From positions 4,721 through 68,720 of the forward strand of contig JBBRMM010000008.1 of the NCBI GenBank assembly GCA_038230835.1: DNA of 64,000 bases. The letters run 5' to 3'. A program made the translations under genes and the position numbers. A model generated the notes under the pieces. It had not been told where the DNA came from and did no database searches. It was given only the letters and a program-made list of their open reading frames with translations. Origin of the DNA: Gaiellales bacterium. GTDB taxonomy: Bacteria; Actinomycetota; Thermoleophilia; Gaiellales; JAICJC01. This document shows positions 10,932-38,750 of this stretch, piece after piece (the first letter of the stretch is position 1; every line of letters starts with the position of its first letter).

Positions 10932-11530
10932 CCGCCTGCCTTGCGGATCCCGTCGGCGAGACTGGTGTCGCTTACCGTGCCTGGGTCGTGCGCCACGATC
11001 CGACCTTGGCGGTCGATGTAGTACGTCTCGGGAACGCCGGTCAGCCCGTAGTTCTCATAGGTCGAGTTGGACTTATCCCACACCGCGGTGTAGGTGACGC
11101 CGTAGCGGCGCAGAAAGCCGATCGCGTCGCCGCGTAGATCCTGCACGTCGACGCCGATGAACACGACGCGCGGGTTGCTCGCCGCGGCGTCGACCAGCAG
11201 CCTGGCCTCGGCGCGACACGCGACACACCAACTGGCCCAGAAGTTCAGCACCACCGGATGCCCACGCAGCCCGCCGAGATCGAGCCCACCGTTGCCGATC
11301 GCCTGTGCGACAGCCGGAGAGGGTGAGCCGCTGGGTGGCCAGAACAATTCAAGCTTGAACAGGGGCGCGGCCGGCTTATTCCCCGCCGCGATCTCCGAGA
11401 CCAGCGTGCCTCCCTGCGAGGACTTGACCAGACCGTAGGCAAACAGCGCCATCACCCCAACGACAGCGACCACGCCGCCAAGCGGGACGAACCACCTCAG
11501 ACCGCGCCAAACTCTCGTCATGGCGCCCAC
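10928..11530 (-). CDS. TlpA/ResA/CcmG-like membrane-anchored thioredoxin
   Basis: 200-aa ORF with an N-terminal TM and VVLNFWASWCVACRAE. Confidence 0.85.
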   Translation of the reverse strand: MGAMTRVWRGLRWFVPLGGVVAVVGVMALFAYGLVKSSQGGTLVSEIAAGNKPAAPLFKLELFWPPSGSPSPAVAQAIGNGGLDLGGLRGHPVVLNFWASWCVACRAEARLLVDAAASNPRVVFIGVDVQDLRGDAIGFLRRYGVTYTAVWDKSNSTYENYGLTGVPETYYIDRQGRIVAHDPGTVSDTSLADGIRKAGG

Positions 11531-11609
11531 CCGGTCGGGTGGTCGGCGATCTGATCGCTCGCTTGGACCGAGGGCAGCGCCGACCTTGGCGATTGGGGTC
11601 TGCTCGGGC

Positions 11610-12344
11610 TCAAAGGTTCGACCACCAGTCGAGATGCAGGCGCTCCAGCAGGTGCTGGGCGTAGATGTTCACGATGTAGAGCTGATTGGTCGCAAGCAGG
11701 TAGCCCATGACGATCAGAACCAGGCCCGCGAACCCCTGGAATCCACGGTAGAAGCGGCGCAAGAAGCGGAAGCTGCGCATCGCCTTGGTGAAGCCCAGCG
11801 AGACGAGCAGAAACGGGGCGGCCAAACCGAGGCCGTACACCAGCAGCAGCAGCACGCCTTGGGCCAGCGTCAGCTTCGCGCCCGCCAGCACGAGGATGCT
11901 TCCCAACACCGGTCCAATGCATGGCGTCCAGCAGAACGCGAACGCAACGCCAAGCGCGACCGGCCCGCCACGCGACACCGCGAGCCGCTGCACCGCCACG
12001 CCAGCCGAGCCGATACCAAGCCCCGACAGGGCGATGTCACCGACCATCAACACACCCATCGCCGCCACGAACCCACCAGCGACGACGTTGAACTGGTCGC
12101 GGTGCACGGCAAGCGTCGAGCCAAGCGCGCTTGCGCTCGCCCCCAGGGCCATGAATACCGCGAGGAATCCGACCAAGAAGAACAGACTCGGCACCAGTGC
12201 CCGGCGACCGCTCTGCTGCGCCGCTAGGTTGCCGCCGACGACCGCCGACACATAGCCCGGCACAAGCGGCAGCACGCACGGGCTCAGGAACGACACGAAC
12301 CCGGCCGCGAACGCCAAAGGAAGAAACACCCCACCGACCCGCAT
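11610..12344 (-). CDS. ccdA: CcdA cytochrome-c-biogenesis-type membrane thiol reductase
   Basis: ORF 11610..12410, trimmed to MRVGGVF, which overlaps the upstream stop. Motifs FLSPCVLPLVPGY and FCWTPCIGPVLG. Confidence 0.85.
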   Translation of the reverse strand: MRVGGVFLPLAFAAGFVSFLSPCVLPLVPGYVSAVVGGNLAAQQSGRRALVPSLFFLVGFLAVFMALGASASALGSTLAVHRDQFNVVAGGFVAAMGVLMVGDIALSGLGIGSAGVAVQRLAVSRGGPVALGVAFAFCWTPCIGPVLGSILVLAGAKLTLAQGVLLLLVYGLGLAAPFLLVSLGFTKAMRSFRFLRRFYRGFQGFAGLVLIVMGYLLATNQLYIVNIYAQHLLERLHLDWWSNL

Positions 12345-12922
12345 CACCCCTCCACCTCCACCAACGCGCGATCGAGCGACGCGACAGTCCGCGGCCCAAG
12401 CAGCCGCCACGCGATCCGCCCCTCACGGTCGATCACGAACGTCGTCGGAAGGCCGATGATCCGGTAGCGATCGGCGATCGTCCGGCTCGGATCAGCCACG
12501 ACCGAGTACCGCACGCCGAACACGTGCATAAACCGAAGCGCGGCCCTGCGCGGATCGTTGACATCGATGCCGATCAACACCGCACTGCGCGGATCCAGCG
12601 TCCTCGCGAAGCGCACCAGTTGGGGCGCCTCCTGTCTGCACGGATGACACCAACTCGCCCAGAAGTTGAGAAACACGACCCGTCCCCGATAGGCGCTTAA
12701 CGCCCCTGGACGGCCCTGCAGCGGGTGGCCGCCACGAAGCGACGGCGCCACATGCCGAGCAGCCGCCGGGACGACTGCGTTCGCACGCGCCGGAGCGGAC
12801 GGGGAGCTCCGCAGCAGCCCGCCGGTCATCACGACAGCTGCAGCCAGAAATGCGAGACCCCAGGCGACGCGTCGTATGACGACGAGCCGACCCGCGGCCG
12901 AAGCGATCCTCCCAGTGGACAC
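12344..12922 (-). CDS. TlpA/ResA-like membrane-anchored thioredoxin
   Basis: 192-aa ORF with a TM helix and VVFLNFWASWCHPCRQE. Confidence 0.85.
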   Translation of the reverse strand: MSTGRIASAAGRLVVIRRVAWGLAFLAAAVVMTGGLLRSSPSAPARANAVVPAAARHVAPSLRGGHPLQGRPGALSAYRGRVVFLNFWASWCHPCRQEAPQLVRFARTLDPRSAVLIGIDVNDPRRAALRFMHVFGVRYSVVADPSRTIADRYRIIGLPTTFVIDREGRIAWRLLGPRTVASLDRALVEVEG

Positions 12923-20164: not shown

Positions 20165-20599
20165 TCACGCGGGCTCCCGCCCGAGCAACAGCGCGCGCCT
20201 GCGATATTCGTACAGTCCGTCAAACAGCGGGGCCGACCATGCCAGCATCTGCTCGTCGTCCCCAGAGATCATCGAGAGGCCGCGGAGCAGGATGTCAAGG
20301 CCCGGCCCCTCAGGCGCGTCGTAGCGCTCGTCAGCCAGATCGGCCTCATGAATCGCACGGCCGATCTCCACGAGCGCCGGATCGTCGAGCTCGTACCGAC
20401 GCAGAAACGCCTCGAAGCTACATTCGCCGCTGTGGTGGCCGAGCTCGACGCCGCGCATGTCAAAGGGTATGGCATAGGTGGGGACGTCGTCTGGATCGTC
20501 CACGAACACGAACTCCGCGTCCTGATCAACGAAGCGGCGGATCAGCCACGCGCAGGCCGCACGATCCACGTGGCAGTTCTTGCGCGTCGCCCATTTCAT
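20165..20599 (-). CDS. ChrB C-terminal-domain protein
   Basis: 144-aa ORF: MKWATRKNCHVDRAACAWLIRRFVDQDAEFVFV.... ATGA overlap with the ChrB-N gene upstream. Confidence 0.75.
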   Translation of the reverse strand: MKWATRKNCHVDRAACAWLIRRFVDQDAEFVFVDDPDDVPTYAIPFDMRGVELGHHSGECSFEAFLRRYELDDPALVEIGRAIHEADLADERYDAPEGPGLDILLRGLSMISGDDEQMLAWSAPLFDGLYEYRRRALLLGREPA

Positions 20600-21069
20600 G
20601 CCGCCGCCTCCACCGCGTTCGCGAGCCTCTCCACCGCGTCACTCGCAAGCTCGCGCTCCACCGGCGGGAAGTAGTCGCGCGAACCGATCCGTCGAAGCTC
20701 GCGACGCAGGCGCGCCAGCGTCCGACGCTGCTCAGACGGTGACCTGCCGACACCCCCCGCCGCCGCATCGATCACCGAGCGGTACTCCTCCGCGATCGCG
20801 GCCGCCATCTGCCCGGCCAACGCGCGCTCCTGAGCCGCCGACGCTGCCTCAGCCAGCCACAGCGTCGCCACGCCCCCGGCATCGGCCACCTCGTCAGCCA
20901 ACCACTCCATCTGCTCGCGCGTGCGGGCGTCGAGCGGCAGCGCCACCAACCCGTCCGTCAGCTGCACCACGCCCAATCGTCGCAGCTGCCGCCACACCGC
21001 GATCCGCGGCGTCGACGGCTCACGCGGCAGCCGGTACGCCAAGAACACCCATCGGATCCGCCCACTCAC
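20596..21069 (-). CDS. ChrB N-terminal-domain protein (split chrB)
   Basis: 157-aa ORF with a GTG start: ...WVFLAYRLPREPSTPRIAVWRQLRRLGVVQLTDGLVALP.... Confidence 0.7.
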   Translation of the reverse strand: MSGRIRWVFLAYRLPREPSTPRIAVWRQLRRLGVVQLTDGLVALPLDARTREQMEWLADEVADAGGVATLWLAEAASAAQERALAGQMAAAIAEEYRSVIDAAAGGVGRSPSEQRRTLARLRRELRRIGSRDYFPPVERELASDAVERLANAVEAAA

Positions 21070-23485: not shown

Positions 23486-24280
23486 TCACGTAGCCGATGG
23501 CTTGGTGGCTTTGATGGTCGCGCCGCGGGCGCCGTACTTCTCTGCCTTCTGGCGGGTGTCGTGGAATGCCGAGTGGGCGTAGGTGTCGATCAGGTCGCCG
23601 GTCTCGATGTCTGTGAATCCGTGGCGCAGTAGGCGGCTCTCGTACTCTGCTTCCAGCAGAGCTCCTGCGATTCAACCGGCCCACAGGTCGATGTCTCGCC
23701 TTCCCTCGTCAGAGACCGGGTGGTGGATGGTGACGTCGGCCAGTTGGATGCGGCCGCCGGGTCGCAGCACGCGGACGATCTCGGAAAAGACGGCGTCCTT
23801 GTCGGGGATCAGGTCGATGACGCCGTTTGAGATCACGACATCGAAGCTTGCGTCGGCGAACGGCAGCTGCTCGGCGCTGCCCTGGACGATCGTGACGGTG
23901 TCGAGTCCTATCTCGGCGGCTGACCGGCGTGCTTTGGCGGTCATCTCGGGGGTCATGTCGATGCCGGTCACCGAGCCGGTTGGGCCGACCATCTGCGCTG
24001 CGATGAGTGTGTCCAGGCCGGCGCCGCAGCCGACGTCCAGTACATCCTCACCGGCGCCTAGCGATCCGAGCACGAAGGGGTTTGCGACTCCGGCGAACGA
24101 CTCGCGGGACGTCTCAGGGATGCGCGCCAGCAGATCGGCGGGGTAGTCGAGATCCTGCGCCCAGGCGCGGCCGGTGGGGAACATGAAGTCGCGGTCCGGC
24201 TCGCGCGACACCGCCGCGTAGGTGCGCTGGATCTCCGAGCGCAAAAGCTCGACATCCAGCCCCTCCACCTCTACCGCCAT
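23486..24280 (-). CDS. ArsM/UbiE-like SAM methyltransferase read through an in-frame TGA (23672-23674): candidate selenoprotein (264 codons, putative Sec at 203)
   Basis: Track ORF 23672..24280 has VLDVGCGAGLD and VISNGVIDL and ends ...DIDLWAG-TGA. The same frame continues for 61 stop-free codons, IAGALLEAEYESRLLRHGFTDIE...ATIKATKPSAT, matching the ArsM GC(I/V)AGAL... C-terminal domain. The extension has no start codon of its own. Confidence 0.6.
23645..23661 (-). promoter_or_regulatory. SECIS-like hairpin downstream of the in-frame TGA
   Basis: On the coding strand, CTCTGCT-GGA-AGCAGAG forms a perfect 7-bp stem starting 11 nt after the TGA, with G residues in the apical loop. Confidence 0.4.
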
Positions 24281-24352: not shown

Positions 24353-25612
24353 TCAGGCACCGGATGGAGCCCCGAGCGCGGGGACGAGGGGGCGCTGTTG
24401 CCAGTGGGTAAGTGCAACGGTGAGGCCGCTGGCGGCGGTGAGCGCGGCGACGATGGTGATGGCAGCCTGGGGGCTGGCGAGGTCGGCGCCGATGCCGGCG
24501 ATGAGCGCGCCAAGCACGAAGCCGAAGTCGCGCCAGAAGCGGTAGACGCCGACCACGCGGGCGCGGTCGCGCGGCTGGCTGGCGTCCGAGACGGCGGCGA
24601 TCAGCGTCGGATAGACCATGGCGGTGCCGGCGCCGAGCAGAACCGCGGCCACCAGGGATGGCAGGAACGCTCCCCCGCCGGCGACGAGGAGCCCGAGCGC
24701 CGCGGCCTGAATGAGCATGCCGATCGTAATCAGCGGTTTCCGTCCGGTGTGGTCGCTAAGCCAACCCGTGAAGAGCTGCCCGGCGCCCCACACCACCGGG
24801 TAGGCAGCGGCAACGACCGCGATCTGGCGCACGCTGGCGCCGTTTGCTGCCAGGAACAGCGGCGCCAGGCCCCAAGCGAGCGCGTCGTTGAGGTTGTTCA
24901 CGAGACCAGCCTGGCTGCACGCCCGCAGCACCGGGTCATGCCAGGTCGCTTGCACAAACGCGCTTCGTAGTGTGTGCGCTGGCGCCGTTGAGTCGTGGTC
25001 GCGCTGCTCGAGCGCGACGTGGGCATGGGTATCGCGCACCCAGACCTGCGAGACAAGCAATCCGGTTGCGGCGATCAGGGCGGCGCCTACCCATACGACT
25101 GTACGCGGCGCGTAAGTGGCGGCAAGCGCGCCGGTAGTGAATGCTGTAGCGGCGACGCCCAGATAGCCGGCGGCCTCGTTCAGGCCAAGCGCCAACCCAC
25201 GCCGGGCGGGGCCGGCCAGGTCGATCTTCATCACCACTGTCATCGACCAGGCCAAGCCCTGATTGACGCCCAGCAGCAGGTTCGCGGCGACGATGAAGCC
25301 CCAGCTCGGTGCGAAGCCAATCAGGAGCGGTATCGGCAGGGCGACCAGCCAGCCGATCACCAGCAGCCGCTTCCGACCGACGCGTTCGGCCAGGCCGCCG
25401 GCGGCCAGGTTGGTGATCGCCTTGGCGGCACCGAACGCAAGAACGAACGTGAGAATCGCGGTCGTGGAGTGCAGCCCGAAGTCGTGCTGGCCGACCAGTG
25501 GTAGGACGCTTCGCTCCAGGCCGACCATCCCCCCTACCAGCGCGTTGAGCGCCACCAACAGCGTGAACTGGGCAGCGTTCTCGCGCAGGCCGAGCCGAAC
25601 GGGTACGGTCAT
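24353..25612 (-). CDS. MFS transporter
   Basis: 419-aa ORF with 12 TM helices and GGLAERVGRKRLL. ATGA overlap with the upstream PDO gene. Confidence 0.85.
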   Translation of the reverse strand: MTVPVRLGLRENAAQFTLLVALNALVGGMVGLERSVLPLVGQHDFGLHSTTAILTFVLAFGAAKAITNLAAGGLAERVGRKRLLVIGWLVALPIPLLIGFAPSWGFIVAANLLLGVNQGLAWSMTVVMKIDLAGPARRGLALGLNEAAGYLGVAATAFTTGALAATYAPRTVVWVGAALIAATGLLVSQVWVRDTHAHVALEQRDHDSTAPAHTLRSAFVQATWHDPVLRACSQAGLVNNLNDALAWGLAPLFLAANGASVRQIAVVAAAYPVVWGAGQLFTGWLSDHTGRKPLITIGMLIQAAALGLLVAGGGAFLPSLVAAVLLGAGTAMVYPTLIAAVSDASQPRDRARVVGVYRFWRDFGFVLGALIAGIGADLASPQAAITIVAALTAASGLTVALTHWQQRPLVPALGAPSGA

Positions 25613-26364
25613 GCCGGCGTGCTGGTCGCGCCTCGGCGATTGGCAGCAACGATCCGCGCCTGCTCGGGCGGCGCCGGCGGCGTGTCCTTGACCAGTGCCT
25701 CGGCAAACGCGTCGGCATCCGTGAAGGAGAGCATCTCGTTGTGCGCGCGCTCAAAGCCGATCGAGGAGACGGGGTTGCCGGACAGTCCCCGGCCGCACGC
25801 CGACCCGGCGTAGTGGCTCGGGAACACGACGACGTAGTCGGGCAGCTCGAGCAAACGCCGTAGCGACGCATGCAGCTCCCGCGACTGACCGAGCGCATCG
25901 CCGGCCACATGCAGATCTGGACGGCCGACATCGCCGATCAGCAGCGAGTCGCCCGTGAACACCAGCCACGGCTCCTCCGTCCCCCGCCGCAGATCCGACA
26001 CCGCATAAGCATGGTGTGTAGGCGCGTGGCCGGGCGTTGCGATCGCCGTCACCCGCGTGTTGCCCAGCTCAACCACGGCGCCATCTTCTAGCGGCGTGTG
26101 CTCGAACTCGACGCCCGCACCGACCGGGAGGTACGCCGTCGCGCCGGTGCGCTCCACCAGCTCGGGCAGCCCCGAAACGTGGTCTGCCTGGACGTGGGTC
26201 TCGAACACAGCCACGATCGGCTGACCCACAGCCTCGGCCGAAGCGACGTAGCGATCGACCAGATCGGCATGCGGGTCGACCACCGCCAACGTGCCGTGCG
26301 TCGTGCACCCAAACAGGTAGCTCGCACACGACGTGGCGTCGTTCAGGAAGGGCCGCAGCAACAT
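25609..26364 (-). CDS. MBL-fold persulfide-dioxygenase-like hydrolase (ETHE1/Blh type)
   Basis: 251-aa ORF with SYLFGC...AVVDP, ETHVQADHVSG (HxHxDH) and TPGHAPTHHAY. Confidence 0.8.
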   Translation of the reverse strand: MLLRPFLNDATSCASYLFGCTTHGTLAVVDPHADLVDRYVASAEAVGQPIVAVFETHVQADHVSGLPELVERTGATAYLPVGAGVEFEHTPLEDGAVVELGNTRVTAIATPGHAPTHHAYAVSDLRRGTEEPWLVFTGDSLLIGDVGRPDLHVAGDALGQSRELHASLRRLLELPDYVVVFPSHYAGSACGRGLSGNPVSSIGFERAHNEMLSFTDADAFAEALVKDTPPAPPEQARIVAANRRGATSTPA

Positions 26365-27029
26365 CAGGCAGCCCCTTCAACCGGAAGTCCTGCACGCCGC
26401 CACTCCGGGAAACCAACATCCAACCGCCGCGCGCGAACACCACGCGCCCGCAGCAGCCGCACCGCGTCATCCGCATACACGCAGTAAGGCCCGCGGCAGT
26501 ACGCGATCACCTCACCCCGCCGCGTTAGCTTCGGCAGCCCTGATTGGAGCGTCCCGATGGGCGCTGAGATCGCGCCGGCGATGTGGCCAGCGTCGTACTC
26601 CGCCTCCGGCCGCACGTCAAGCACCACCACCTGGCCGCGAGCCACCCGCTCGGCAAGCTCCGCGGCCGACACCTGCTCGATTCCGTCTCGATCGCCCAGG
26701 TACTCACCTGCAAGCACCGCGACCTCCGCCACATGATGAGCCGCCACATCCCGCACCGCCGCCCACAGATCCGCCACCCGATCGCTCGCCAAGCGATACA
26801 CCACCCGAGCACCGTCGCGACGCGACCGAACCAGACCCGACCGGGCCAAGAGCCGCAGGTGGTGCGACGTGTTGGCGAGACTCTGGCCGACCTCACCCGC
26901 CACCTCATCCACCGACCGCTCACCCTGGGCCAACACATCCACGATCTCCGCCCGCCGCCCACTGCCCAACGCCTGCGCCACCGACGCAAACGCGTCAAAC
27001 AGGGCATCCTTGGCCACACGGTCACTCAT
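26364..27029 (-). CDS. ArsR-family regulator fused to a rhodanese domain (BigR-like context)
   Basis: 221-aa ORF with wHTH ...SVDEVAGEVGQSLANTSHHLRLLARSGLVRSRRDGARVVYRL, then rhodanese VVLDVRPEAEYDAGHIAGA...IAYCRGPYC. Confidence 0.85.
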   Translation of the reverse strand: MSDRVAKDALFDAFASVAQALGSGRRAEIVDVLAQGERSVDEVAGEVGQSLANTSHHLRLLARSGLVRSRRDGARVVYRLASDRVADLWAAVRDVAAHHVAEVAVLAGEYLGDRDGIEQVSAAELAERVARGQVVVLDVRPEAEYDAGHIAGAISAPIGTLQSGLPKLTRRGEVIAYCRGPYCVYADDAVRLLRARGVRARRLDVGFPEWRRAGLPVEGAA

Positions 27030-27139
27030 ATAATCAAACTATCACTTGAACCCAAGATCGTCAAACCGGCGGCCGGGTGAGAGCCGTCACCCCTGCGGGG
27101 AGGGCGCCGCCGGGGGCGCAGACTGACTGCTGTCCCCGC

Positions 27140-27206
27140 GGTTGAGCCAAACTCGCCCGGTCTTGAAAACCGGCACAAAGCGGCCGATCTGAAGGCCGGT
27201 TTGGAC
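27140..27206. repeat. Structured intergenic repeat, copy C
   Basis: GGTTGAGCCAAACTCGCCCGGTCTTGAAAACCGGCACAAAGCGGCCGATCTGAAGGCCGGTTTGGAC. Closing stem CCAAAC/GTTTGG, with hairpins CCGGT-CTTGAAA-ACCGG and CGGCC-GATCTGAA-GGCCG. Confidence 0.5.
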
Positions 27207-27301
27207 GGAAAATCTGAGCTGGTGCCCCCATAGTGCCCCCACGGGAATCACTGACGCTTCAGCTACACCAGGTTTCCCGCTTAACCAACCCGCAAACAGC
27301 A

Positions 27302-27347
27302 AGCCCTCTAACGGACTCGAACCGTTGACCCCTTCCTTACCATGGAA
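27302..27347 (-). other. tRNA 3'-half-like fragment (anticodon arm, T arm and 3' acceptor strand; no matching 5' half)
   Basis: Reverse strand reads TTCC-ATGGTAA-GGAA G GGGTC AACGG-TTCGAGT-CCGTT AGAGGGC T. The T arm is canonical, but no upstream GCCCTCT is present to close an acceptor stem. Confidence 0.3.
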
Positions 27348-27648
27348 TCGATCGCTTACGCTCGACAGGCCCGCACTACTTCGATGTTAGCAAGCAACTA
27401 TCAGCCACATCGACGGTTTCCTCCTGAAGGGCGACTTCCTTGACGGGATTATGCGATCGTTACGGTGGCGGCTGGGGAGTAGCCTGTTTGGCCGCCCGCG
27501 GTGCGGCGGTAGCGCGCGCGAAACTGCCATGTGCCTTTGGCGAGCGTCGTTGAGGTTGACGTGGTGGTCTGGTCGACTCGGATTCCACCATCGCGGGCGT
27601 AAGATCCTCTTGTCGCAATTCGCAGGGTACCGGCCGAAGGAGCGTCAC

Positions 27649-30108
27649 GTGATCCTCCAGCAGTACTACCTTGGCTGCCTCGCGCACGCCTCCTATCTGA
27701 TCGCCGACCTGCAGAGCGGCGTGGCTGCGGTCGTCGATCCTCAGCGCGACGTCGACCAGTACCTGACCGACGCTCGCCGGGCGGGCGTTCGCATCGAGCA
27801 CGTCTTCCTGACGCATTTCCACGCCGACTTCCTGGCCGGCCATCTCGAGCTGCGCGACCGCGCGGGAGCGAAGATCTATCTGGGCCGAAGCGCCCAGGCC
27901 GAATACGAGTTCACGCCGGTGGGAGATGGCGATGTTGTCGAGTTGGGCTCGCAGGTGCGACTCCAGGTGCTGGAAACGCCCGGCCACTCGCCCGAATCGA
28001 TCTCGATCCTGGTATTCGATCTGACTGAGGACGCTAAGGCCCCGGCGGCGGTGCTGACCGGCGACACGCTCTTTATCGGCGATGTCGGCCGACCTGACTT
28101 GCGCGCCTCGCTGGGCTGGAGCGCGCAAGAGCTCGGCAGCATGCTTTTTGACTCGCTGCGCGACAAGCTGCTGCCGCTGCCCGACGCGACCCTTGTCTAC
28201 CCTGCGCACGGGGCGGGTTCGCTGTGTGGCAAGCACCTCAGCAGCGACACCGTCTCGACGATCGGCGAGCAGCGCTTGCACAACTACGCCCTGCAACCCA
28301 CCAGCCGCGACGAGTTCATCCGCATCGTCACTGCTGATCAGCCGGAGACGCCGAGTTACTTCTCGTACGACGCGGTCCTGAACGCCCAGGAGCACCCGAC
28401 GCTTGAGAAGGCGCTCGAGCGCGGGCTGCGTCCGCTCACGCTGGAGCAGACGCTCGAGGCAAAGTCGGCCGGCGCCCAGATCCTCGACACCCGCGATCCG
28501 GCCGACTTCGCGGGCGCGCACCTGGCCGGTAGCATCAATATTGGGCTGGGCGGAAGCTACGCGACGTGGTGCGGCACGCTGCTCGATCGAGAGCGGCCGG
28601 TGGTGGTCGTGACCGACCTTGGCCGCGAACTGGAGTCGGCTATGCGGCTGGGCAGGATCGGGTTCGACATCGTGGCCGGCTACCTCGGCCGCGGGTTGCT
28701 GGCGCTGGAGGGCCACCCCGACCTCGTCGCGAGCGCCGAGCGGGTCACCGCGAGCGCGCTTGAGGAGCAGCTCCTCTCGCCGGCCCCGCCAGTGTTGCTC
28801 GACGTCCGGTCGCAGCTCGAGTGGGACGAGAAGCACGTCGACGGGAGCATCAACGTTCCGCTGGCGCACCTGGCGGACCGGATCGACGAGCTGCCACACG
28901 ACCGCCTCATGGTCACACAGTGCTCAAGCGGCTACCGCTCCTCGATCGCCGCCAGCATCCTGCTCGCGCAGGGATTAACGCAGGTCGAGGACATGGTCGG
29001 CGGCCTCGACGCCTGGGTGTCGTCGGGGCTCGAGACGGTGCAGCCAGTCGGCGTCCGGCACCTGATCCTGCACCGCGAGGATCCGCACAACGCGGAGGCG
29101 CCGGTCGCGCTCCTGTGCGGATCCACCGTCACCGCATCCGAGACGTTCTTCGTCCGCAACCACGGGCCTGTGCCGGTGGTCGACGCCGGCGCTTACCGGC
29201 TGACGTTGGCCGGCGCCGTATCGCGGCCGCTAGCGCTTTCGATCGGCGAGCTGCGGGAGCAATTTGCGCACACCACGGTGACCGCCACGATCGCATGCGC
29301 CGGCAACCGCCGCGGCGAGTTGAACAGCTTCGCGCACGTACCCGACGCGATCCCGTGGGGCGCCGGCGCGATTGGCACCGCGACCTGGACCGGGATCCGC
29401 CTCGGCGACCTGCTCGAAGCGGTCGGGCCGACGGACGACGCCCGCCACGTCGCATTCGTGGGGCTCGATCAGGTCGAGGCCGAGGGCGGGCTCGCCTCCT
29501 TTGCAGGCTCGATCCCGCTCAAGAAGGCGCTTTCGCCGGAGGTACTGCTCGCCTACGAAATGAACGGCGCGCCCCTACCGGCCGAGCACGGCTTCCCGCT
29601 GCGCGCCATCATCCCCGGCTATATCGGCGCTCGCAGCGTGAAATGGCTCTCGGCCATCTCGGTGCAACCCGCGCCCTCGGCCAGCTTCTTCCAGATCACC
29701 GACTATGCACTCGACGGCGAACCGCTGGGCGAACTGCCGCTCAACTCGGTGGTATGCCGGCCGGCGTCTGGCGATACCGTCTCCGGTCCCTCGATTGTGG
29801 CGGAGGGCTACGCGCTGGCCGGCGGGCCGCGCTCGGTGGAGCGGGTCGAGGCGTCGCTCGACGGCGGCGTGACCTGGATACCGGCGTCGCTGGCGGCCAG
29901 TCGCGAGCCGTGGGCATGGCGTTTGTGGAGGGTGGAGCTGGAAATCCCGGAGGGTTCCTGCGAGCTGATCGTGCGGGCCTTTGACTCGGCGTCCGGCGGA
30001 CAGCCCGAGGCGCTTGCCAGCGTCTGGAACCCCCGCGGCTACATGAACAACGCCTGGCACCGGGTGTCGTTCGACGTCGCCCCAGTCGGCCGCATCACGG
30101 CCGCCTGA
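27649..30108 (+). CDS. Fusion protein: persulfide dioxygenase (MBL fold), rhodanese (inactive), rhodanese (CSSGYRS), and sulfite-oxidase-type molybdopterin domain
   Basis: ORF 27451..30108, trimmed to GTG 27649 (GAAGGAG RBS 7 nt upstream). Motifs: LTHFHADFLAGH, TPGHSPES, MVTQCSSGYRSS, FFVRNHGPVPV, IACAGNRRGE, LLAYEMNGAPLPAEHGFPLRAIIPGYIGARSVKWL. Confidence 0.85.
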   Translation: MILQQYYLGCLAHASYLIADLQSGVAAVVDPQRDVDQYLTDARRAGVRIEHVFLTHFHADFLAGHLELRDRAGAKIYLGRSAQAEYEFTPVGDGDVVELGSQVRLQVLETPGHSPESISILVFDLTEDAKAPAAVLTGDTLFIGDVGRPDLRASLGWSAQELGSMLFDSLRDKLLPLPDATLVYPAHGAGSLCGKHLSSDTVSTIGEQRLHNYALQPTSRDEFIRIVTADQPETPSYFSYDAVLNAQEHPTLEKALERGLRPLTLEQTLEAKSAGAQILDTRDPADFAGAHLAGSINIGLGGSYATWCGTLLDRERPVVVVTDLGRELESAMRLGRIGFDIVAGYLGRGLLALEGHPDLVASAERVTASALEEQLLSPAPPVLLDVRSQLEWDEKHVDGSINVPLAHLADRIDELPHDRLMVTQCSSGYRSSIAASILLAQGLTQVEDMVGGLDAWVSSGLETVQPVGVRHLILHREDPHNAEAPVALLCGSTVTASETFFVRNHGPVPVVDAGAYRLTLAGAVSRPLALSIGELREQFAHTTVTATIACAGNRRGELNSFAHVPDAIPWGAGAIGTATWTGIRLGDLLEAVGPTDDARHVAFVGLDQVEAEGGLASFAGSIPLKKALSPEVLLAYEMNGAPLPAEHGFPLRAIIPGYIGARSVKWLSAISVQPAPSASFFQITDYALDGEPLGELPLNSVVCRPASGDTVSGPSIVAEGYALAGGPRSVERVEASLDGGVTWIPASLAASREPWAWRLWRVELEIPEGSCELIVRAFDSASGGQPEALASVWNPRGYMNNAWHRVSFDVAPVGRITAA

Positions 30109-30306
30109 ATCAACGGCGCCTTCCCCAATGACCTGACCGGCATCGATCGGTCGTGAGACTCAGAGGACACGGCGACGCGGGCTTTCCTAGCCTCGATTCT
30201 GCGTGGGGGCGTGGTTTGGCGTCCGGTCGGGTACGAAAATGGCCTCCTGAGCAGGCAAGACGGGCTGTATGGGCAGTCGCGATGCCTGCAGCAGGAGGTC
30301 ACCCGG

Positions 30307-31032
30307 ATGGTGAAGCATACGAAGCGGCGTCGGACGTTGCGGTTGGTGGCTGATGATGATCGGTTGGTGTCGCATGCTGGCCTGGTGGTGGTGGATGAGG
30401 TGGCTCAGCGGCTGGGCTTGGAGCGGGAGTTGACCGAGGCGGTGGGATTGGCGTATCGGTCGCAGCCGCCGGGGCGGACGCTGGTGCGTTTGGCGCAGAT
30501 GCTGATCGCTGGTGGTGATTGCGTGATGCATCTGCGTGGGTTGCGTGACCAGCCGGCCTTGTTTGCAGACCCCACCGCGCATGACTCGACCGCGTGGCGA
30601 CTCTTGGCTGAGCGGCTGGTGGGCGCGCCGTTGGCAGGCCTTGGGGCTGCGCGGGCGGCGGCGCGTGAGCGGGCCTGGCAGGCGGGTCTGCGACCGGTGA
30701 CGGTCCCGATCGACGTCGACGCGCACTTGGTGACCAGCCACACAGACGAGAAGGAGGCAGCGTTTGCGACCTATAAGCAGGGGTTCGGGTGTCACCCGTT
30801 GGTCGCTTACCTGGCCGAGACGAGTGAGGCGCTGGCCGGGGTTCTGCGGCCTGGCTGCGCGTCGGCGCTGGACGCCGAGGATCAGTTGGAGGTGGTCGAC
30901 CTGGCGCTCGAGCAGTTGCCCGCAAGCGTCTCACCCCAAGACGTCTTGGTGCGCGCCGATACCGCGGGCTACGCGAAAGGCGTGGTCGGCGGATTGTGCC
31001 GGCGCGCACAACCGCAGGTCTGGGGCACATGA
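30307..31032 (+). mobile_element. IS1380-family transposase, N-terminal fragment (truncated)
   Basis: MVKHTKRRRTLRLVADDDRLVSHAGL...PIDVDAHLVTSHTDEKEAAFATYKQGFGCHPLVAYL...LRPGCASALDAEDQLEVVDLALEQLP...VLVRADTAGY. About 240 aa are present of an expected roughly 450. The fragment ends about 90 nt from tRNA-Leu. Confidence 0.7.
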
Positions 31033-31118: not shown

Positions 31119-31202
31119 TGCGGATGAGAGGACTTGAACCTCCACGACCTTACGGCCACACGGACCTGAACCGTGCGCGTCTACCAATTCCGCCACATCC
31201 GC
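31119..31202 (-). tRNA. tRNA-Leu (anticodon CAG), type II with long variable arm; CCA not encoded
   Basis: Reverse strand: GCGGATG TG GCGGAATTGGTAGACGC G CACGG-TTCAGGT-CCGTG TGGCCGTAAGGTCGT GGAGG-TTCAAGT-CCTCT CATCCGC A. Confidence 0.9.
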
Positions 31203-35450: not shown

Positions 35451-36224
35451 TCAGGCCGGCAGCGACGTGGGCAGCGCCGCGCCGCCCAGCATCCGCAACG
35501 CATCGGCGACACTGACCGAGGTGCAGGTGAAGATCGGCGTGTCGCGTTCGGTGTACACGCTGGCCTCGGTCTCGCGCAGCGTCATCATCAGGTCAAGGAA
35601 GTCGCCCACGAAGTCGGTCTCGAAGGCCACCACGAATTCCTGGTCGTCGATGCCGTAGGAGTACGTGGTGTTGATCTTGACGGTGGGGAAACGGTGGCCG
35701 GTCGCGATGTGCTCGTTCATGATGCCCTGCCGCGCGGGTTTGGACATCTGATACCAGGGCCGGGTCTTGACCATCGGGTAGATCAGCAGGTACCTCGAAT
35801 CAGGGTTCCACATGATCCGGCCGCGCTTGTGCATCGAGCGGCCGTCGCCCTTCACGTACTGCGAGCGTCGGGTCATCGACAGGTACGCGTACGGGGTGTG
35901 CAGGTACGCGCCCATCGCGGTTGACCCGATCGCCGTCGCAAGCTCCTGGAAGTCCTCGAGCCGCTCGGACACTTTCCACAGCATGAAGTCGGCGTCGGCG
36001 CGCACGCCCATCGTCGAGTAGGCACGCACCGCGAAGCGCTCTGCCTGATCTTCGATCACCGCACGCAACTGCTCACGTCCCGACTGCTGCGTGTCGGCGG
36101 GCAGCCGCCGCCAGGCGGGGTCGAGCTTGTAGAAGCTGAAGTGCACGAACTGCCGGTCTTCGCCGGCGGAGTTGTTCGGCTCCAAGTCCGTATGGGTGCT
36201 CGCGGTGCCGTTCGGCTCGCTCAT
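35451..36224 (-). CDS. hemQ: Chlorite-dismutase-family coproheme decarboxylase (HemQ/ChdC)
   Basis: C-terminal 257 aa of ORF 35451..36776, from MSEPNG. Sequence ...FSFYKLDPAWRRLP..., ...LLIYPMVKTRPWYQM..., ...MNEHIATGHRFP.... Confidence 0.85.
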   Translation of the reverse strand: MSEPNGTASTHTDLEPNNSAGEDRQFVHFSFYKLDPAWRRLPADTQQSGREQLRAVIEDQAERFAVRAYSTMGVRADADFMLWKVSERLEDFQELATAIGSTAMGAYLHTPYAYLSMTRRSQYVKGDGRSMHKRGRIMWNPDSRYLLIYPMVKTRPWYQMSKPARQGIMNEHIATGHRFPTVKINTTYSYGIDDQEFVVAFETDFVGDFLDLMMTLRETEASVYTERDTPIFTCTSVSVADALRMLGGAALPTSLPA

Positions 36225-36310
36225 GGTCTCGATCGTAGCAGCGCTTCCGACACGGACCCGACACCGTTTCGGTCTGGATCGGTGACGCTGACCGGCCGTA
36301 GCGTGGGCCC

Positions 36311-36631
36311 ATGACCGGTGAGCGCGCACAGGCGAGTGTCGAGACCGTCGTCCTGCTGCCCGTGCTGGTCCTGCTCGGCCTGGCGGCATGGCAGGTGCTG
36401 CTGGCCGGCTGGGCGCTGCAGGCGGCGCAGGACTCTGCAGCCGCCGGCGCCCGTGCGGCGAGCGTCGGCGAGCCGGTGCGGGCGGTGGTCGCGGCGTCGC
36501 TACCTCCCCGCATGCGCGGCACGTTGCGCCTGTCGTCCAGCGGCGGCCGGTTGGTGGTGAGCGTCGTCGTGCCATCGGTGATCCCGGGCTTCGCCCCACG
36601 CATCGAGGCCTCGGCGGACGGTGGTGGGTGA
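36311..36631 (+). CDS. TadE-like pseudopilin-type protein
   Basis: 106-aa ORF: MTGERAQASVETVVLLPVLVLLGLAAWQV... (G/xQxxVE processing-type N-terminus). Confidence 0.65.
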   Translation: MTGERAQASVETVVLLPVLVLLGLAAWQVLLAGWALQAAQDSAAAGARAASVGEPVRAVVAASLPPRMRGTLRLSSSGGRLVVSVVVPSVIPGFAPRIEASADGGG

Positions 36632-36924
36632 GCCGCAGTTCCGGGCAGGCGTCGGTCGAACTGGTGGCCGTGGTCGGACTGGTGGCCATGCTCGCCTTCG
36701 GGCTGTGGGATGTGCTGGCCGTGGTGCGCGCCCAGGATGCGGCCCAGCGACTGGCCGACAGGGCGGCCGTCGCCACGCTCGAACGGCGTCCGGTGTCGCC
36801 GGCAGGGGATGGTCAAACCGTGCGGGTGGAGGCGGGGCGGGTGTTCGCGGAGGTGCGCCTGTGCGCTCTCACCGCAGCTGCCGGGTGTTTCGCGGTTTCG
36901 GCGCAGGCACGCCTGCCCGCATGA
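36628..36924 (+). CDS. TadE-like protein (second copy)
   Basis: GTG start overlapping the upstream stop (GTGA): VSRSSGQASVELVAVVGLVAMLAFGLWDV... (frame of track ORF 36388..36924). Confidence 0.55.
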   Translation: MSRSSGQASVELVAVVGLVAMLAFGLWDVLAVVRAQDAAQRLADRAAVATLERRPVSPAGDGQTVRVEAGRVFAEVRLCALTAAAGCFAVSAQARLPA

Positions 36925-38750
36925 GCGAGCGCGGCCAATTGACGGTGGCTGCGGCCGGTCTGATGGTGGCGCTGGTGCTGGGTGCGTCGGTGCTGCTCCA
37001 CCTGGGCCGGATCCGCGCGCAAGGAGCGGGTGGACAGCGCGCCGCCGACCTCGCGGTGCTGGCGGCCGCCCGCGATCTCGCCGACGATCCCGCCGCAGCA
37101 GCGAGTCATCTGCGAGCGACCGCTTCGAGCGTCGCCGCCGCGAACGGCGGACACCTGGCGTGGTTGCGGATCGAGCGCGGTGCCGCGGGGCCGGCGGCCG
37201 TCGACCTGGCGGTGCGGGTGGAGGCGGACGGCGCGCTTCCGGTCGTCGGGTCGCGTGCAGACCGGATACTCGTGCGGGCGCGGGCCGGGGTCAGCTACAG
37301 CGCGTCGCTGCCTGACTCGAGCTTTCGCCCGGTCGACCTGGCCGGGGCTCGCGGTGCCGGCGCGGCGGTGGCCGCCGCTGAGGCGCAGATCGGCTGGCCC
37401 TACGTGTGGGGCGGCGAGAGTCGGGCGGAGGGCGGATTCGACTGCTCGGGCCTGGTCGACTATGCATACGCGGCTGCCGGTATGCCGCTGCCCGGCCGGC
37501 CCACCGCCGCCGACCTGTGGACGATGGCGACGCCGATCCCGGTCGCCGCGCTCGCGCCCGGTGACCTGGTGTTCCTCGGTGCCCGCTCCGGTGCCCCGTA
37601 TCACGTCGGAATGTACGTGGGTGGAGGCATGACCGTGGTCGCCCCGCACAGTGGGGCGGCGGTCGGGTTCGAGCCGCTGTCCGCGGTCGGCTGGGACGGG
37701 TTTGGCACACTGACGGCGAGCGCGTCTCCAGTCCCCGTCGGCGCGGTCGAGGCCGCGGCTCGCCGCTACCAGGTCCCGCCCGACGTGCTGCGAGCCGAGC
37801 TCGACCTGGGCGTCTCGGCGGACGCGGATGCCGCCGGGCGTAGCCTGGCCGCGGCGGTACATCGGCACCCGGGCGATCTGGTGGCGGCGCTCGCCGACGC
37901 CCTCGGCGGCGACCCCTCGAACGCCGCCCTCGTGCTGCGGGCGGCGTCCGGACCCGGCTTGGGCGCCGGGTTCTCGGGATCGGTGCGGTTGCTGGCCGAG
38001 CCGATCGGCGGGGCCGACGTGGCTCGGATGGGCACCCCCGCGTCGCGGAGCGCGCACGCCGCGGCCGGTTGGTCTGTGGGCGCCGCCGGACAGTCGGCGC
38101 TGGCGGCCGGTTCGAAGGCGGCCGACTGGCTCGAGGAGGTGCACGGGCGAGGGGCGGTGGGCGGGTTCGCAGGCGTCCACCACATCAGCCGTCTGGGGCT
38201 CAACGCGGCGACGCTGTATCCCGACCGCAGGGTGTCCACGGCCGGTTCGGTCCTCGGCGCTGCCTGGGATGTCGGGAGCAGCGCCCTGGATGTGTTCGCC
38301 GACGGCCTTGGCTCGGGACTCGCGGTCGGCGGGCTGGGACTGTGGGCATCTCGCCTGACTGTGCTCGGGGGAGTAGCGTCGCTCGCGTTCGGTGGGTACG
38401 CCCTGTACGAGGCCCGCACACGCCGGCAGCAGATCGTTGCGGGAGCCCAGACCGTTGCCGGCGGGCTCACGGTGGCCGGCTTCGCCACGGCGGGTGGGGA
38501 GCTATGCGCGCTGGGGGCCGCCAGCATGGAGGTCCCGCCGGTCGGGCTCGCGCTGTTGTGCGCCGCCACCTTGATCACCGCCGGTGTGACGGTGTATCAG
38601 AACTGGTCGGCGATCCGCGGGGCTGCGACAGTGGCCGCGGGGTCGGCCTCGAGGCTGGCATCGCGGGCGGCCTTGACCGTCAGCGACGCGGCGGGCGCCG
38701 CAGTGGACGGCGCCCGCTCGCTCGTGTCGTCGATCCCGACGCCCTGGTAG
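36921..38750 (+). CDS. TadG-like N-terminus fused to an NlpC/P60 peptidoglycan endopeptidase and a Gly/Ala-rich multi-TM C-terminus
   Basis: ORF 36621..38750, trimmed to MSERGQLTVAAAGLMVALVL (ATGA overlap). Motifs AADLAVLAAARDL and IGWPYVWGGESRAEGGFDCSGLVDYAY...APYHVGMYVGGG. The C-terminal 200 aa are hydrophobic. Confidence 0.7.
   Translation: MSERGQLTVAAAGLMVALVLGASVLLHLGRIRAQGAGGQRAADLAVLAAARDLADDPAAAASHLRATASSVAAANGGHLAWLRIERGAAGPAAVDLAVRVEADGALPVVGSRADRILVRARAGVSYSASLPDSSFRPVDLAGARGAGAAVAAAEAQIGWPYVWGGESRAEGGFDCSGLVDYAYAAAGMPLPGRPTAADLWTMATPIPVAALAPGDLVFLGARSGAPYHVGMYVGGGMTVVAPHSGAAVGFEPLSAVGWDGFGTLTASASPVPVGAVEAAARRYQVPPDVLRAELDLGVSADADAAGRSLAAAVHRHPGDLVAALADALGGDPSNAALVLRAASGPGLGAGFSGSVRLLAEPIGGADVARMGTPASRSAHAAAGWSVGAAGQSALAAGSKAADWLEEVHGRGAVGGFAGVHHISRLGLNAATLYPDRRVSTAGSVLGAAWDVGSSALDVFADGLGSGLAVGGLGLWASRLTVLGGVASLAFGGYALYEARTRRQQIVAGAQTVAGGLTVAGFATAGGELCALGAASMEVPPVGLALLCAATLITAGVTVYQNWSAIRGAATVAAGSASRLASRAALTVSDAAGAAVDGARSLVSSIPTPW

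Follow-up and report, generated by a model that had tools for sequence, protein, structure and literature searches.

A rare bacterial fusion of a CstB-type persulfide dioxygenase-rhodanese with a predicted cytoplasmic, heme-less sulfite oxidase

Introduction

Can a bacterium place the conversion of persulfide through sulfite to sulfate, the textbook pathway of mitochondria, on a single polypeptide chain? This question is raised by a gene on the plus strand (27649..30108, including the stop codon) of a 64,000-nucleotide stretch of the genome of a Gaiellales bacterium, an actinobacterium of soil (GenBank assembly GCA_038230835.1, contig JBBRMM010000008.1, positions 4,721 to 68,720), which is called the window in the following. 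An original prediction, made from the letters of this DNA, had read the gene product as a single polypeptide with a persulfide dioxygenase (PDO) domain, two rhodanese domains and a sulfite-oxidase (SUOX) domain that binds the molybdenum cofactor (Moco), and had known of no characterised example of this architecture. Reviews mention PDO-rhodanese fusions only and treat bacterial sulfite oxidation as a periplasmic, cytochrome c-dependent process (one such review is PMC9774590). We likewise found no description of a PDO-SUOX fusion or of an overlapping gene pair in the literature, the library searched being incomplete and the result therefore an absence of evidence; the architecture turned out to be neither common nor characterised. 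The fusion described here is real, rare and uncharacterised, and the two enzyme types that it joins are both known, as is their pathway. What is new are split relatives with overlapping genes and the resulting series of fused and split states.

Results

The reading frame of the gene (27451..30108, +) is open from end to end without interruption. The ribosome-binding site GAAGGAG was read from the sequence at 27636..27642 (+), with a spacer of 6 nt to the GTG at 27649, and translation from this start codon gives an 819-aa product that is identical to the database protein P0001 (819 aa). On the basis of the reading frame, the Pfam matches and this identity, the whole gene was assigned to a PDO/pseudo-rhodanese/rhodanese/sulfite-oxidase fusion. 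The translation carries THFHADF, ETPGHSPES, VVTDLGRELES, QCSSGYRS, FFVRNHGPVP, CAGNRR and HGFPLRAIIPGYIGARSVKWL, and with them all motifs quoted in the original prediction. The Pfam search proposed there recovered Lactamase_B, Rhodanese, Oxidored_molyb and Mo-co_dimer with scores far beyond chance, and comparisons of profiles, sequences and folds all support the single polypeptide with PDO, two rhodaneses and SUOX Moco domain. Neither sigma-70-like promoters nor intrinsic terminators were found around the gene, and no Moco riboswitch or other known RNA was detected at E <= 1 in the 620-bp gap upstream of it.

The N-terminal half resembles CstB of S. aureus, for which a recent preprint (PMC12934615, 2026) describes a catalytic set consisting of the Fe(II) triad H56/H119/D145, H58 and the rhodanese cysteine C408 behind an arginine wall (R370, R413). 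A mobile loop specific for CstB contains C201-G202, which becomes S-sulfonated and is the site of self-S-sulfonation (PMC12934615). According to the same work CstB-type enzymes release no sulfite; the Cys-S-sulfonate is handed to the rhodanese, thiosulfate made from two molecules of persulfide (RSSH) is the sole product, and in the C408S variant sulfite was found bound in the rhodanese site.

In the fusion protein, Pfam places Lactamase_B at residues 9-187 and Rhodanese at two stretches, the best being residues 374-458. Residues 1-461 run colinear with CstB; Foldseek aligned residues 1-446 with it (PDB 3R2U; E 1e-53, 31% identity), and the order from PDO through pseudo-rhodanese to catalytic rhodanese is the same in both proteins. 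The PDO domain (27649..28353, +), which is also colinear with 3tp9, has H56, H113, D139 and H58 aligned to CstB H56, H119, D145 and H58. Its dynamic loop (28210..28251, +) reads GAGSLC193G194K, aligned to CstB GAGSPCGK, so that C193-G194 corresponds to C201-G202. The pseudo-rhodanese (residues ~262-356; 28432..28716, +) comprises the second Pfam Rhodanese stretch and the expected fold elements in an AlphaFold2 (AF2) model. Its active-site loop VVTDLGRELES is devoid of cysteine and aligns with the Cys-less middle domain of CstB, in keeping with the inactivity that had been predicted for it. The second rhodanese (residues 362-462; 28732..29034, +) had been predicted to be catalytic, and C425 in its QCSSGYRS motif indeed aligns with CstB C408, as does the pair R387/R430 with the arginine wall R370/R413. 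H56, H113, D139, H58, C193-G194, C425, R387 and R430 are invariant in 54/54 relatives. Position 13 departs from this pattern. It is Gln in CstB and Thr in canonical PDOs and is discussed with regard to an S-sulfonate versus a sulfite outcome (PMC12934615), whereas His13 is present in the fusion, in 53/53 aligned relatives and in 3tp9. The Q13T variant of CstB is simply inactive (PMC12934615). To judge from the alignments, the N-terminal module thus displays all features of CstB that a sequence can reveal except Q13.

Further differences from CstB are D20 in place of C20 and the position of the fusion gene outside any cst operon with sqr or tauE. In CstB, a thiosulfate-forming enzyme, the rhodanese is the last domain, whereas in the fusion a sulfite-oxidase module of 350 aa comes next. 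The best solved match to the N-terminal 461 residues is a beta-lactamase/rhodanese protein of Alicyclobacillus acidocaldarius (PDB 3TP9; E 7e-86, 38% identity, TM-score normalised to the target (TMt) 0.74), a structural-genomics target whose function has not been studied and which has no Moco module. BpPRF (PDB 5VE3-5) and Blh are likewise natural PDO-sulfurtransferase fusions, but of another PDO subtype. BpPRF matches only residues 13-212 of the fusion (21-22% identity, E 1e-18-1e-19), both have a single rhodanese, no alignment in the Cys-Gly loop and no Moco domain, and the Blh equivalog model of NCBIfam was not reached (34.9 vs 625 bits).

The C-terminal half matches Oxidored_molyb (PF00174) at residues 505-680 (E 1.8e-56) and Mo-co_dimer (PF03404) at residues 695-808 (E 1.1e-24, profile positions 6-135 of 138). 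The closest solved relatives of residues 473-810 are the sulfite oxidases of chicken (PDB 1SOX; E 6e-78, 42-43% identity, root-mean-square deviation (rmsd) 2.8 Å) and of Arabidopsis (PDB 1OGP; E 8e-73, 39% identity), the rmsd to the two being 2.7-2.9 Å. Much weaker matches were obtained with SorA (30% identity), SorT (27%), nitrate reductase (27%) and SoxC (26%). In the Moco-binding domain (residues 482-690; 29092..29718, +), delimited by Pfam and by the 1sox alignment, the Mo ligand C550 of the CAGNRR motif aligns with chicken C185, and the residues of the sulfite pocket, R503, R555, W570, Y686 and R796, correspond to chicken R138, R190, W204, Y322 and R450. C550 and the first four pocket residues are invariant in 57/57 sequences; the position of R796 is occupied by Lys in 42 and by Arg in 12 of the 57. 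R796 lies in the Ig-like Mo-co dimerisation domain (residues 695-808; 29731..30072, +), which was recognised by Pfam, by alignment to chicken sulfite oxidase and by Foldseek, with a TMt of 0.83-0.86 to the chicken enzyme. The complete SUOX module that had been predicted is therefore upheld by both Pfam matches, the chicken alignment and the fold, and as far as its sequence can tell the C-terminal module passes as a sulfite oxidase in every respect that can be examined in this way. A heme domain is absent, as in the plant enzyme: a cytochrome b5 domain was not found by Pfam, and the 1sox alignment begins only at residue 109, after the heme domain of the chicken protein.

Bacterial sulfite dehydrogenases such as SorAB (Starkeya), SorT/SorU (Sinorhizobium) and the Thermus SOR share fold and reaction type with this module, although they are just 27-30% identical to it. 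These enzymes are described as periplasmic (PMC9774590) and as encoded beside cytochrome c or other redox-protein acceptors (PMC3561395), neither of which holds for the fusion. No signal peptide was found in the fusion protein, which opens directly with the metallo-beta-lactamase (MBL)/PDO fold. The export by the twin-arginine translocation (Tat) pathway and the cytochrome c partner typical of SorA/SorT were not seen at its N-terminus or in the neighbourhood of the gene in the window, respectively. There is no cytochrome gene next to the fusion gene in the window nor in 6/7 related loci, a cytochrome c gene two genes downstream being present in a single related locus (L085). The NCBIfam equivalogs were not reached for SorA (205.9 vs 600 bits), SorT (157.9 vs 570 bits) and SoxC (149.8 vs 420 bits; 26% identity to 2xts), so that the fusion would fall outside SorA/SorT, SoxC and Blh/BpPRF alike. 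Since the chain begins at the MBL fold and 115/120 stand-alone relatives of its sulfite-oxidase half are without a Tat-like motif, the fusion protein is predicted to be cytoplasmic. What sets it apart from the plant and chicken enzymes is its bacterial origin, this cytoplasmic location and the PDO-rhodanese that precedes the sulfite oxidase on the same chain.

The sulfite-oxidase half is itself a member of a large clade of stand-alone bacterial proteins of ~350 aa, of which 5230 were found with E <= 1e-20, named examples being from Dormibacteraeota, Anaerolineae, Thermoanaerobaculia and Gaiellaceae. The 120 relatives inspected for export signals (P0121-P0240) start 10-20 residues ahead of the PLNAE motif, 115 of them without a Tat-like signal. 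The clade appears to consist of cytoplasmic, heme-less, eukaryote-like sulfite oxidases, and no characterised member was found.

The two halves are connected by a flexible linker of 19 residues (463-481; 29035..29091, +), which was delimited by low AF2 confidence and by comparison of the junctions with those of L086, L088 and L083. In the AF2 model of the fusion the domains are confidently predicted (mean per-residue confidence (pLDDT) 81.7, predicted TM-score (pTM) 0.50), with pLDDT <50 in the Cys-Gly loop (188-201) and in the linker (466-481). No solved structure covering both halves turned up in the Foldseek comparison. The SUOX module always follows the catalytic rhodanese, also in variants composed of PDO, three rhodaneses and SUOX (P0242, 922 aa) or of RHD-Rhd-SUOX, i.e. 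pseudo-rhodanese, rhodanese and SUOX without PDO (P0298/P0367, both of which look genuine). A two-domain Rhd-SUOX architecture suggested by P0150, P0172, P0181, P0194 and P0206 was rejected, as the N-termini of these proteins begin inside the rhodanese/RHD of the long-linker fused family and thus look like truncated gene calls. Other unusual fusions among these related proteins were an Rrf2 transcription regulator joined to a complete sulfite oxidase (P0374, 523 aa) and a PDO-rhodanese joined to a class-V aminotransferase/cysteine desulfurase (P0271, 746 aa).

All four Pfam domains are present in the top 83 matches among 5.8 billion clusters at 90% identity, with coverages of 93-100% (at least 95% for all but P0081) and identities of 58-73%; by tally these clusters hold ~275 member sequences. 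The architecture is thus shared by at least 83 clusters, which stem mostly from Thermoleophilia in metagenomes. The few named members belong to metagenome-assembled genomes (MAGs) of Gaiellales, Solirubrobacterales and Thermoleophilaceae, and fused members are annotated just as 'molybdopterin-dependent oxidoreductase' or 'hydroxyacylglutathione hydrolase'. Among 1.84 billion representatives at 50% identity a single protein, P0241, spans the whole query in one stretch, to which the variant P0242 is to be added. In 185,579 species-representative genomes, one fused gene (L001, Thermoleophilaceae) was present among the 80 best CstB-like loci, and none of 72,556 plasmid records covers at least 80% of the fusion protein. 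Scans of metagenomes and genomes with full-length alignment returned mostly stand-alone CstB-like genes, because the search patterns were derived from the PDO domain, and were used as a background sample, in which a SUOX gene lies near the CstB-like gene in about 6/160 loci. From these cluster, representative, genome and plasmid counts, the four-domain architecture exists in nature but is lineage-restricted and rare.

When the sulfite-oxidase half alone was used as the query, the closest relatives were stand-alone proteins of ~350 aa with 61-69% identity, several of which are encoded on contigs that also carry the nearest stand-alone counterparts of the N-terminal half. The CstB-like and sulfite-oxidase genes of L086/L087 and L088 are adjacent with an overlap of 11 nt. 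The sulfite-oxidase gene starts, in the +1 frame, with an ATG that falls within the 3' end of the upstream gene (ATG..TGA overlap), and this overlapping stop/start junction coincides in position with the linker of the fusion. No stop interrupts the junction region in the window or in the gene of the sister protein P0002 (L083, another MAG), in both of which it stays in a single frame. Three kinds of junction occur in fused proteins: the linkers of P0001, P0002 and P0003 are short and mutually different, while the majority of fused proteins, of ~840 aa, have an Arg/Pro-rich linker of ~30 residues. In a neighbour-joining tree that was built from the concatenated halves with 100 bootstraps, the fused proteins P0001 and P0002 group together (100%), and their sister clade comprises split pair B, fused P0003 and split pairs A and C (99%), the joint clade again receiving 100%. 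The fused proteins with the long linker are sister to this short-linker/split clade, and L104 and L030, with separate adjacent genes, are outgroups. On this tree at least three changes between the fused and the split state are needed under any reconstruction.

These junctions bear directly on whether the fusion gene might be an artefact, in which an indel of 1 nt around 29040-29090, introduced by assembly or sequencing, merged two overlapping genes. One net nucleotide separates the fused from the split state, and the nearest relatives of both halves have their sulfite-oxidase gene in the +1 frame with the ATG..TGA overlap exactly here. On the other hand, Logan contigs of 2 samples contain an identical sequence of 3033 bp, even if the reads behind them may be those of the deposited assembly. 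In P0002, which comes from another MAG assembly, the two halves share one frame across a linker that has diverged, and stops are absent nearby in all frames; fusion recurs in P0003 and about 80 further clusters, and the linker codons show a coding-like GC content at third positions (14/16). Because of the identical Logan assemblies from two samples and the fusion in independent assemblies, we regard a frameshift artefact as highly unlikely, and the fusion withstood the test for mis-joined genes that the original prediction had suggested.

More distant SUOX clades (33-46% identity) adjoin CstB-like genes or lie within 5 kb of them in L030, L104, L156, L012 and L047, which span Acidobacteriota, Solirubrobacterales, Nitrospira and two metagenome contigs, the gene order being reversed in one. 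In L030, an Acidobacteriota MAG, the sulfite-oxidase gene (11450-12847, +) directly downstream of the CstB-like gene encodes an extra N-terminal ~125 aa (MALFVVRHQHSADKCPAQDPYLGAKLL...). The recurrence of the two halves as fused, overlapping and adjacent genes, with repeated transitions between these states, is evidence of the Rosetta-stone type and argues for a functional coupling in which both modules would work together.

A 1-Cys peroxiredoxin gene (AhpC-TSA + 1-cysPrx_C, ~218 aa) was observed to adjoin CstB-like genes in about 34/170 loci of Thermoleophilia and Acidobacteriota, usually upstream on the same strand and with or without a SUOX module (e.g. L001 9322-9975, L082 7222-7872, L085 5307-5960, L006, L019, L021, L090, L096, L100, L126, L131 and L169). 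We know of no explanation for this conserved gene pair.

The fusion gene is divergent from a regulator gene and from a second, stand-alone PDO gene, as had been noted before. The regulator (26364..27029, -) combines an ArsR/SmtB helix-turn-helix domain (Pfam HTH_5/HTH_20; NCBIfam metalloregulator subfamily) with a rhodanese domain (Pfam Rhodanese) with a CRGPYC loop and is a candidate sensor of reactive sulfur. The first gene after it (25609..26364, -) encodes a 251-aa PDO, recognised by Pfam, which carries the Cys-Gly loop AGSACG and is 44% identical to its counterpart domain in the fusion. This divergent operon continues with a major facilitator superfamily (MFS) transporter gene (24353..25612, -; Pfam MFS_1), and its last clear gene (23672..24280, -) encodes an ArsM-like S-adenosylmethionine-dependent methyltransferase of 202 aa, assigned by Pfam and with all NCBIfam arsenite-methyltransferase models below their cut-offs. 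A similar pair of ArsR-rhodanese and MFS genes lies near a CstB-like gene in L169. The association of the ArsR-rhodanese gene with the fusion gene is uncertain, and a regulation of the fusion by it is plausible. The MFS transporter is 73% identical to one in L086 (16182-17378), encoded 6 kb downstream of the split CstB/sulfite-oxidase pair after genes for ArsR, a methyltransferase and an ArsC-like phosphatase, a partly shared gene order that would link the sulfur genes to an ars-like cluster.

The 620 bp between the divergent start codons (27030-27648) contain a tRNA-like 3' fragment (27290-27345, -) with a 5-bp T-stem, a GGTTCGAGTCC loop and the 3' strand of the acceptor, without a 5' half. 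It was not called by ARAGORN or Rfam, the latter reporting only two tRNAs in the whole window, and it is possibly the remnant of an old integration site. In T-arm and acceptor it differs from both tRNAs of the window, tRNA-Leu and tRNA-Gly. Downstream of the fusion gene lie a truncated DDE transposase reading frame (30211-31032, +; DDE_Tnp_1_4, profile positions 3-236 of 435) and tRNA-Leu(CAG) (31119-31202, -). The Logan contig with the fusion gene starts at 27318 inside the tRNA-like fragment and ends at 30350 inside the transposase frame. The fusion gene is the last gene of a metal/stress region and is thus bracketed by two repeat-like or mobile remnants.

This metal/stress-resistance region (1-31 kb, GC 0.65-0.69) holds genes for a Cu-type (HMA) P-ATPase, CopC/CopD, AhpC-TSA/redoxin, DsbD-like and thiol-disulfide oxidoreductase proteins, a BlaR1/BlaI-like pair, two ArsR proteins, two cation diffusion facilitator (CDF) transporters, ChrA, ChrB and a DsrE-like protein, in addition to the ArsM-like, MFS and stand-alone PDO genes. 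ChrB is present as two abutting frames (20165-21069, -; ChrB_N 20596-21069, ChrB_C 20165-20599) with a 4-nt overlap, which reflects a natural split or else a frameshift. The remainder (31200-64000) carries core actinobacterial genes, with a GC content of 0.67-0.74 (at least about 0.70 at 36-54 kb) and of 0.64-0.69 in the last 10 kb. They include the actinobacterial cluster uvrC-yvcK-whiA-gap-tpi, with a yvcK/CofD-like gene, and genes for a CoA-transferase, Bcp, iPGM, argS and SodA. The ArgRS encoded here shows 64-76% identity to proteins that without exception bear the name Gaiellales, in keeping with a Gaiellales-like actinobacterium. A gene of the chlorite-dismutase family (HemQ-like) was found at 35451-36812 (-). 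At 36582-38750 the GC content is 0.74, several long frames overlap on both strands, NlpC/P60 is the sole recognisable domain and gene calls are uncertain. The left half of the window looks like an island inserted next to tRNA-Leu; an island bounded by a duplicated 3' end of tRNA-Leu was rejected, as no such repeat was found.

Discussion

We consider it rather probable that the fusion is a self-contained cytoplasmic enzyme which oxidises reactive sulfane sulfur to sulfate, its substrate, product, hand-over and electron acceptor being what we infer from the comparisons above. The mobile Cys193-Gly194 loop and the rhodanese Cys425 would receive sulfane sulfur from a low-molecular-weight persulfide, and Fe(II) and O2 would oxidise the loop persulfide to a species at the sulfonate/sulfite level. 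The Moco module would then take up sulfite, either freed at the rhodanese site or formed anew at this site when the reversible rhodanese reaction runs back from thiosulfate, and by oxidising it irreversibly to sulfate would pull the system in this direction. On balance persulfide would be turned into sulfate without free sulfite or thiosulfate. The rhodanese site is the likely point of hand-over, because sulfite was bound there in C408S CstB and because SUOX follows the catalytic rhodanese even in the variants without PDO. Plant sulfite oxidase passes its electrons to O2. In the absence of a heme domain, an export signal or a conserved cytochrome neighbour, O2 is also the simplest guess for the fusion, so that the two electrons from Mo would most likely go to O2 as in the heme-less plant enzyme, or else to another cytoplasmic acceptor.

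Several observations weigh against this assignment. As thiosulfate is reported to be the sole product of CstB, with no release of sulfite (PMC12934615), it is not obvious which free substrate the sulfite oxidase would find unless the fusion follows a different chemistry, and since CstB passes a Cys-S-sulfonate to the rhodanese, the route of the sulfur to Moco is less simple than the original prediction had assumed. The low pTM and the disordered linker mean that no fixed channel between the domains is predicted by AF2. Chicken K200 is not conserved, its place being taken by D566. Neither a conserved gene neighbourhood nor a redox partner was found in the six other contexts of fused genes, close CstB-like relatives (72% identity) occur without any sulfite-oxidase gene nearby, and genes for Moco biosynthesis or sqr are missing from the 64-kb window, which says nothing about the rest of the genome. 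The 1-Cys peroxiredoxin gene upstream in 3/6 fused contexts was rejected as a sign of H2O2 output by the sulfite-oxidase domain, because such genes flank about 34/170 CstB-like loci that mostly lack a sulfite oxidase.

How closely the two modules cooperate can be read in different ways. At one end stands a tethered machine, in which the Cys-S-sulfonate loop and/or the persulfidated rhodanese feed Moco directly, so that sulfane sulfur is burnt to sulfate with O2 only and without diffusible sulfite or thiosulfate, the lineage toggling between a one-chain and a two-chain complex by changes of +/-1 nt; this version is doubtful. At the other end, the modules might merely be co-expressed 1:1 without any hand-over, the CstB part making thiosulfate and the sulfite-oxidase part detoxifying free cytoplasmic sulfite from organosulfonate or cysteine catabolism or from leakage of the neighbouring stand-alone PDO. 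The flexible linker and low pTM, the ease with which fused and split states interchange, the abundance of stand-alone cytoplasmic sulfite oxidases of the same clade, the many close CstB-like genes without a sulfite oxidase and the reported lack of sulfite release by CstB (PMC12934615) all speak for such a loose arrangement. We nevertheless think it unlikely, as the translationally coupled overlap and the repeated independent fusion are hard to explain without a shared pathway, different SUOX clades have been recruited independently beside CstB-like genes, and SUOX always comes directly after the catalytic rhodanese.

Two further explanations concern the substrate. The Moco domain could oxidise or resolve protein-bound sulfur in the manner of SoxCD, i.e. 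the persulfide on Cys425 or the S-sulfonate on Cys193 instead of free sulfite. SoxC is a member of this fold family (E 1e-22), CstB chemistry uses sulfur covalently tethered to a swinging loop (PMC12934615), and the catalytic rhodanese abuts the Moco domain. Yet this domain is far closer to genuine sulfite oxidases, retains the complete pocket for a small anion and stays below the SoxC equivalog cut-off, and no SoxD-, SoxYZ- or SoxB-like genes were seen in the window, which together make SoxCD-like chemistry quite improbable. The island with its Cu-ATPase, CopCD, ChrAB, CDF, ArsR, ArsM-like and DsrE genes, and the split pair in L086, 4 kb from an ArsR-methyltransferase-ArsC-MFS cluster with a transporter similar to that of the window, would fit a role in metalloid-sulfur chemistry, e.g. 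the detoxification of thioarsenic, rather than in general persulfide clearance. Six other fused-gene contexts are without arsenic genes and all catalytic residues match those of sulfur enzymes, so that we give such a specialisation very little credence.

Overall, under our preferred assignment, i.e. the conversion of sulfane sulfur to sulfate by both modules, the fusion parallels mitochondrial sulfide oxidation (SQR, ETHE1, rhodanese/TST, SUOX), with which it shares PDO, sulfurtransferase and sulfite-oxidase activities and the eukaryote-like type of sulfite oxidase. The mitochondrial activities are spread over separate proteins, with a heme b5 domain on SUOX, whereas here they would reside on one polypeptide or, in close relatives, be encoded by two translationally coupled genes. 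The series of fused, overlapping and adjacent genes illustrates cleanly how frame changes at an overlapping stop/start can fuse or split genes. The fusion would also allow a direct test of the new CstB mechanism: if no sulfite is ever released, the fused sulfite oxidase must be fed otherwise or the product must have switched. Should a tethered hand-over to Moco be true, it would bear both on this mechanism and on sulfite oxidation in the bacterial cytoplasm. Thus, the fusion provides a natural Rosetta-stone link between CstB-type PDOs and a large, uncharacterised clade of sulfite oxidases from soil bacteria that appear to be cytoplasmic, heme-less and eukaryote-like, and it predicts a single-gene module that would turn toxic sulfane sulfur into sulfate.

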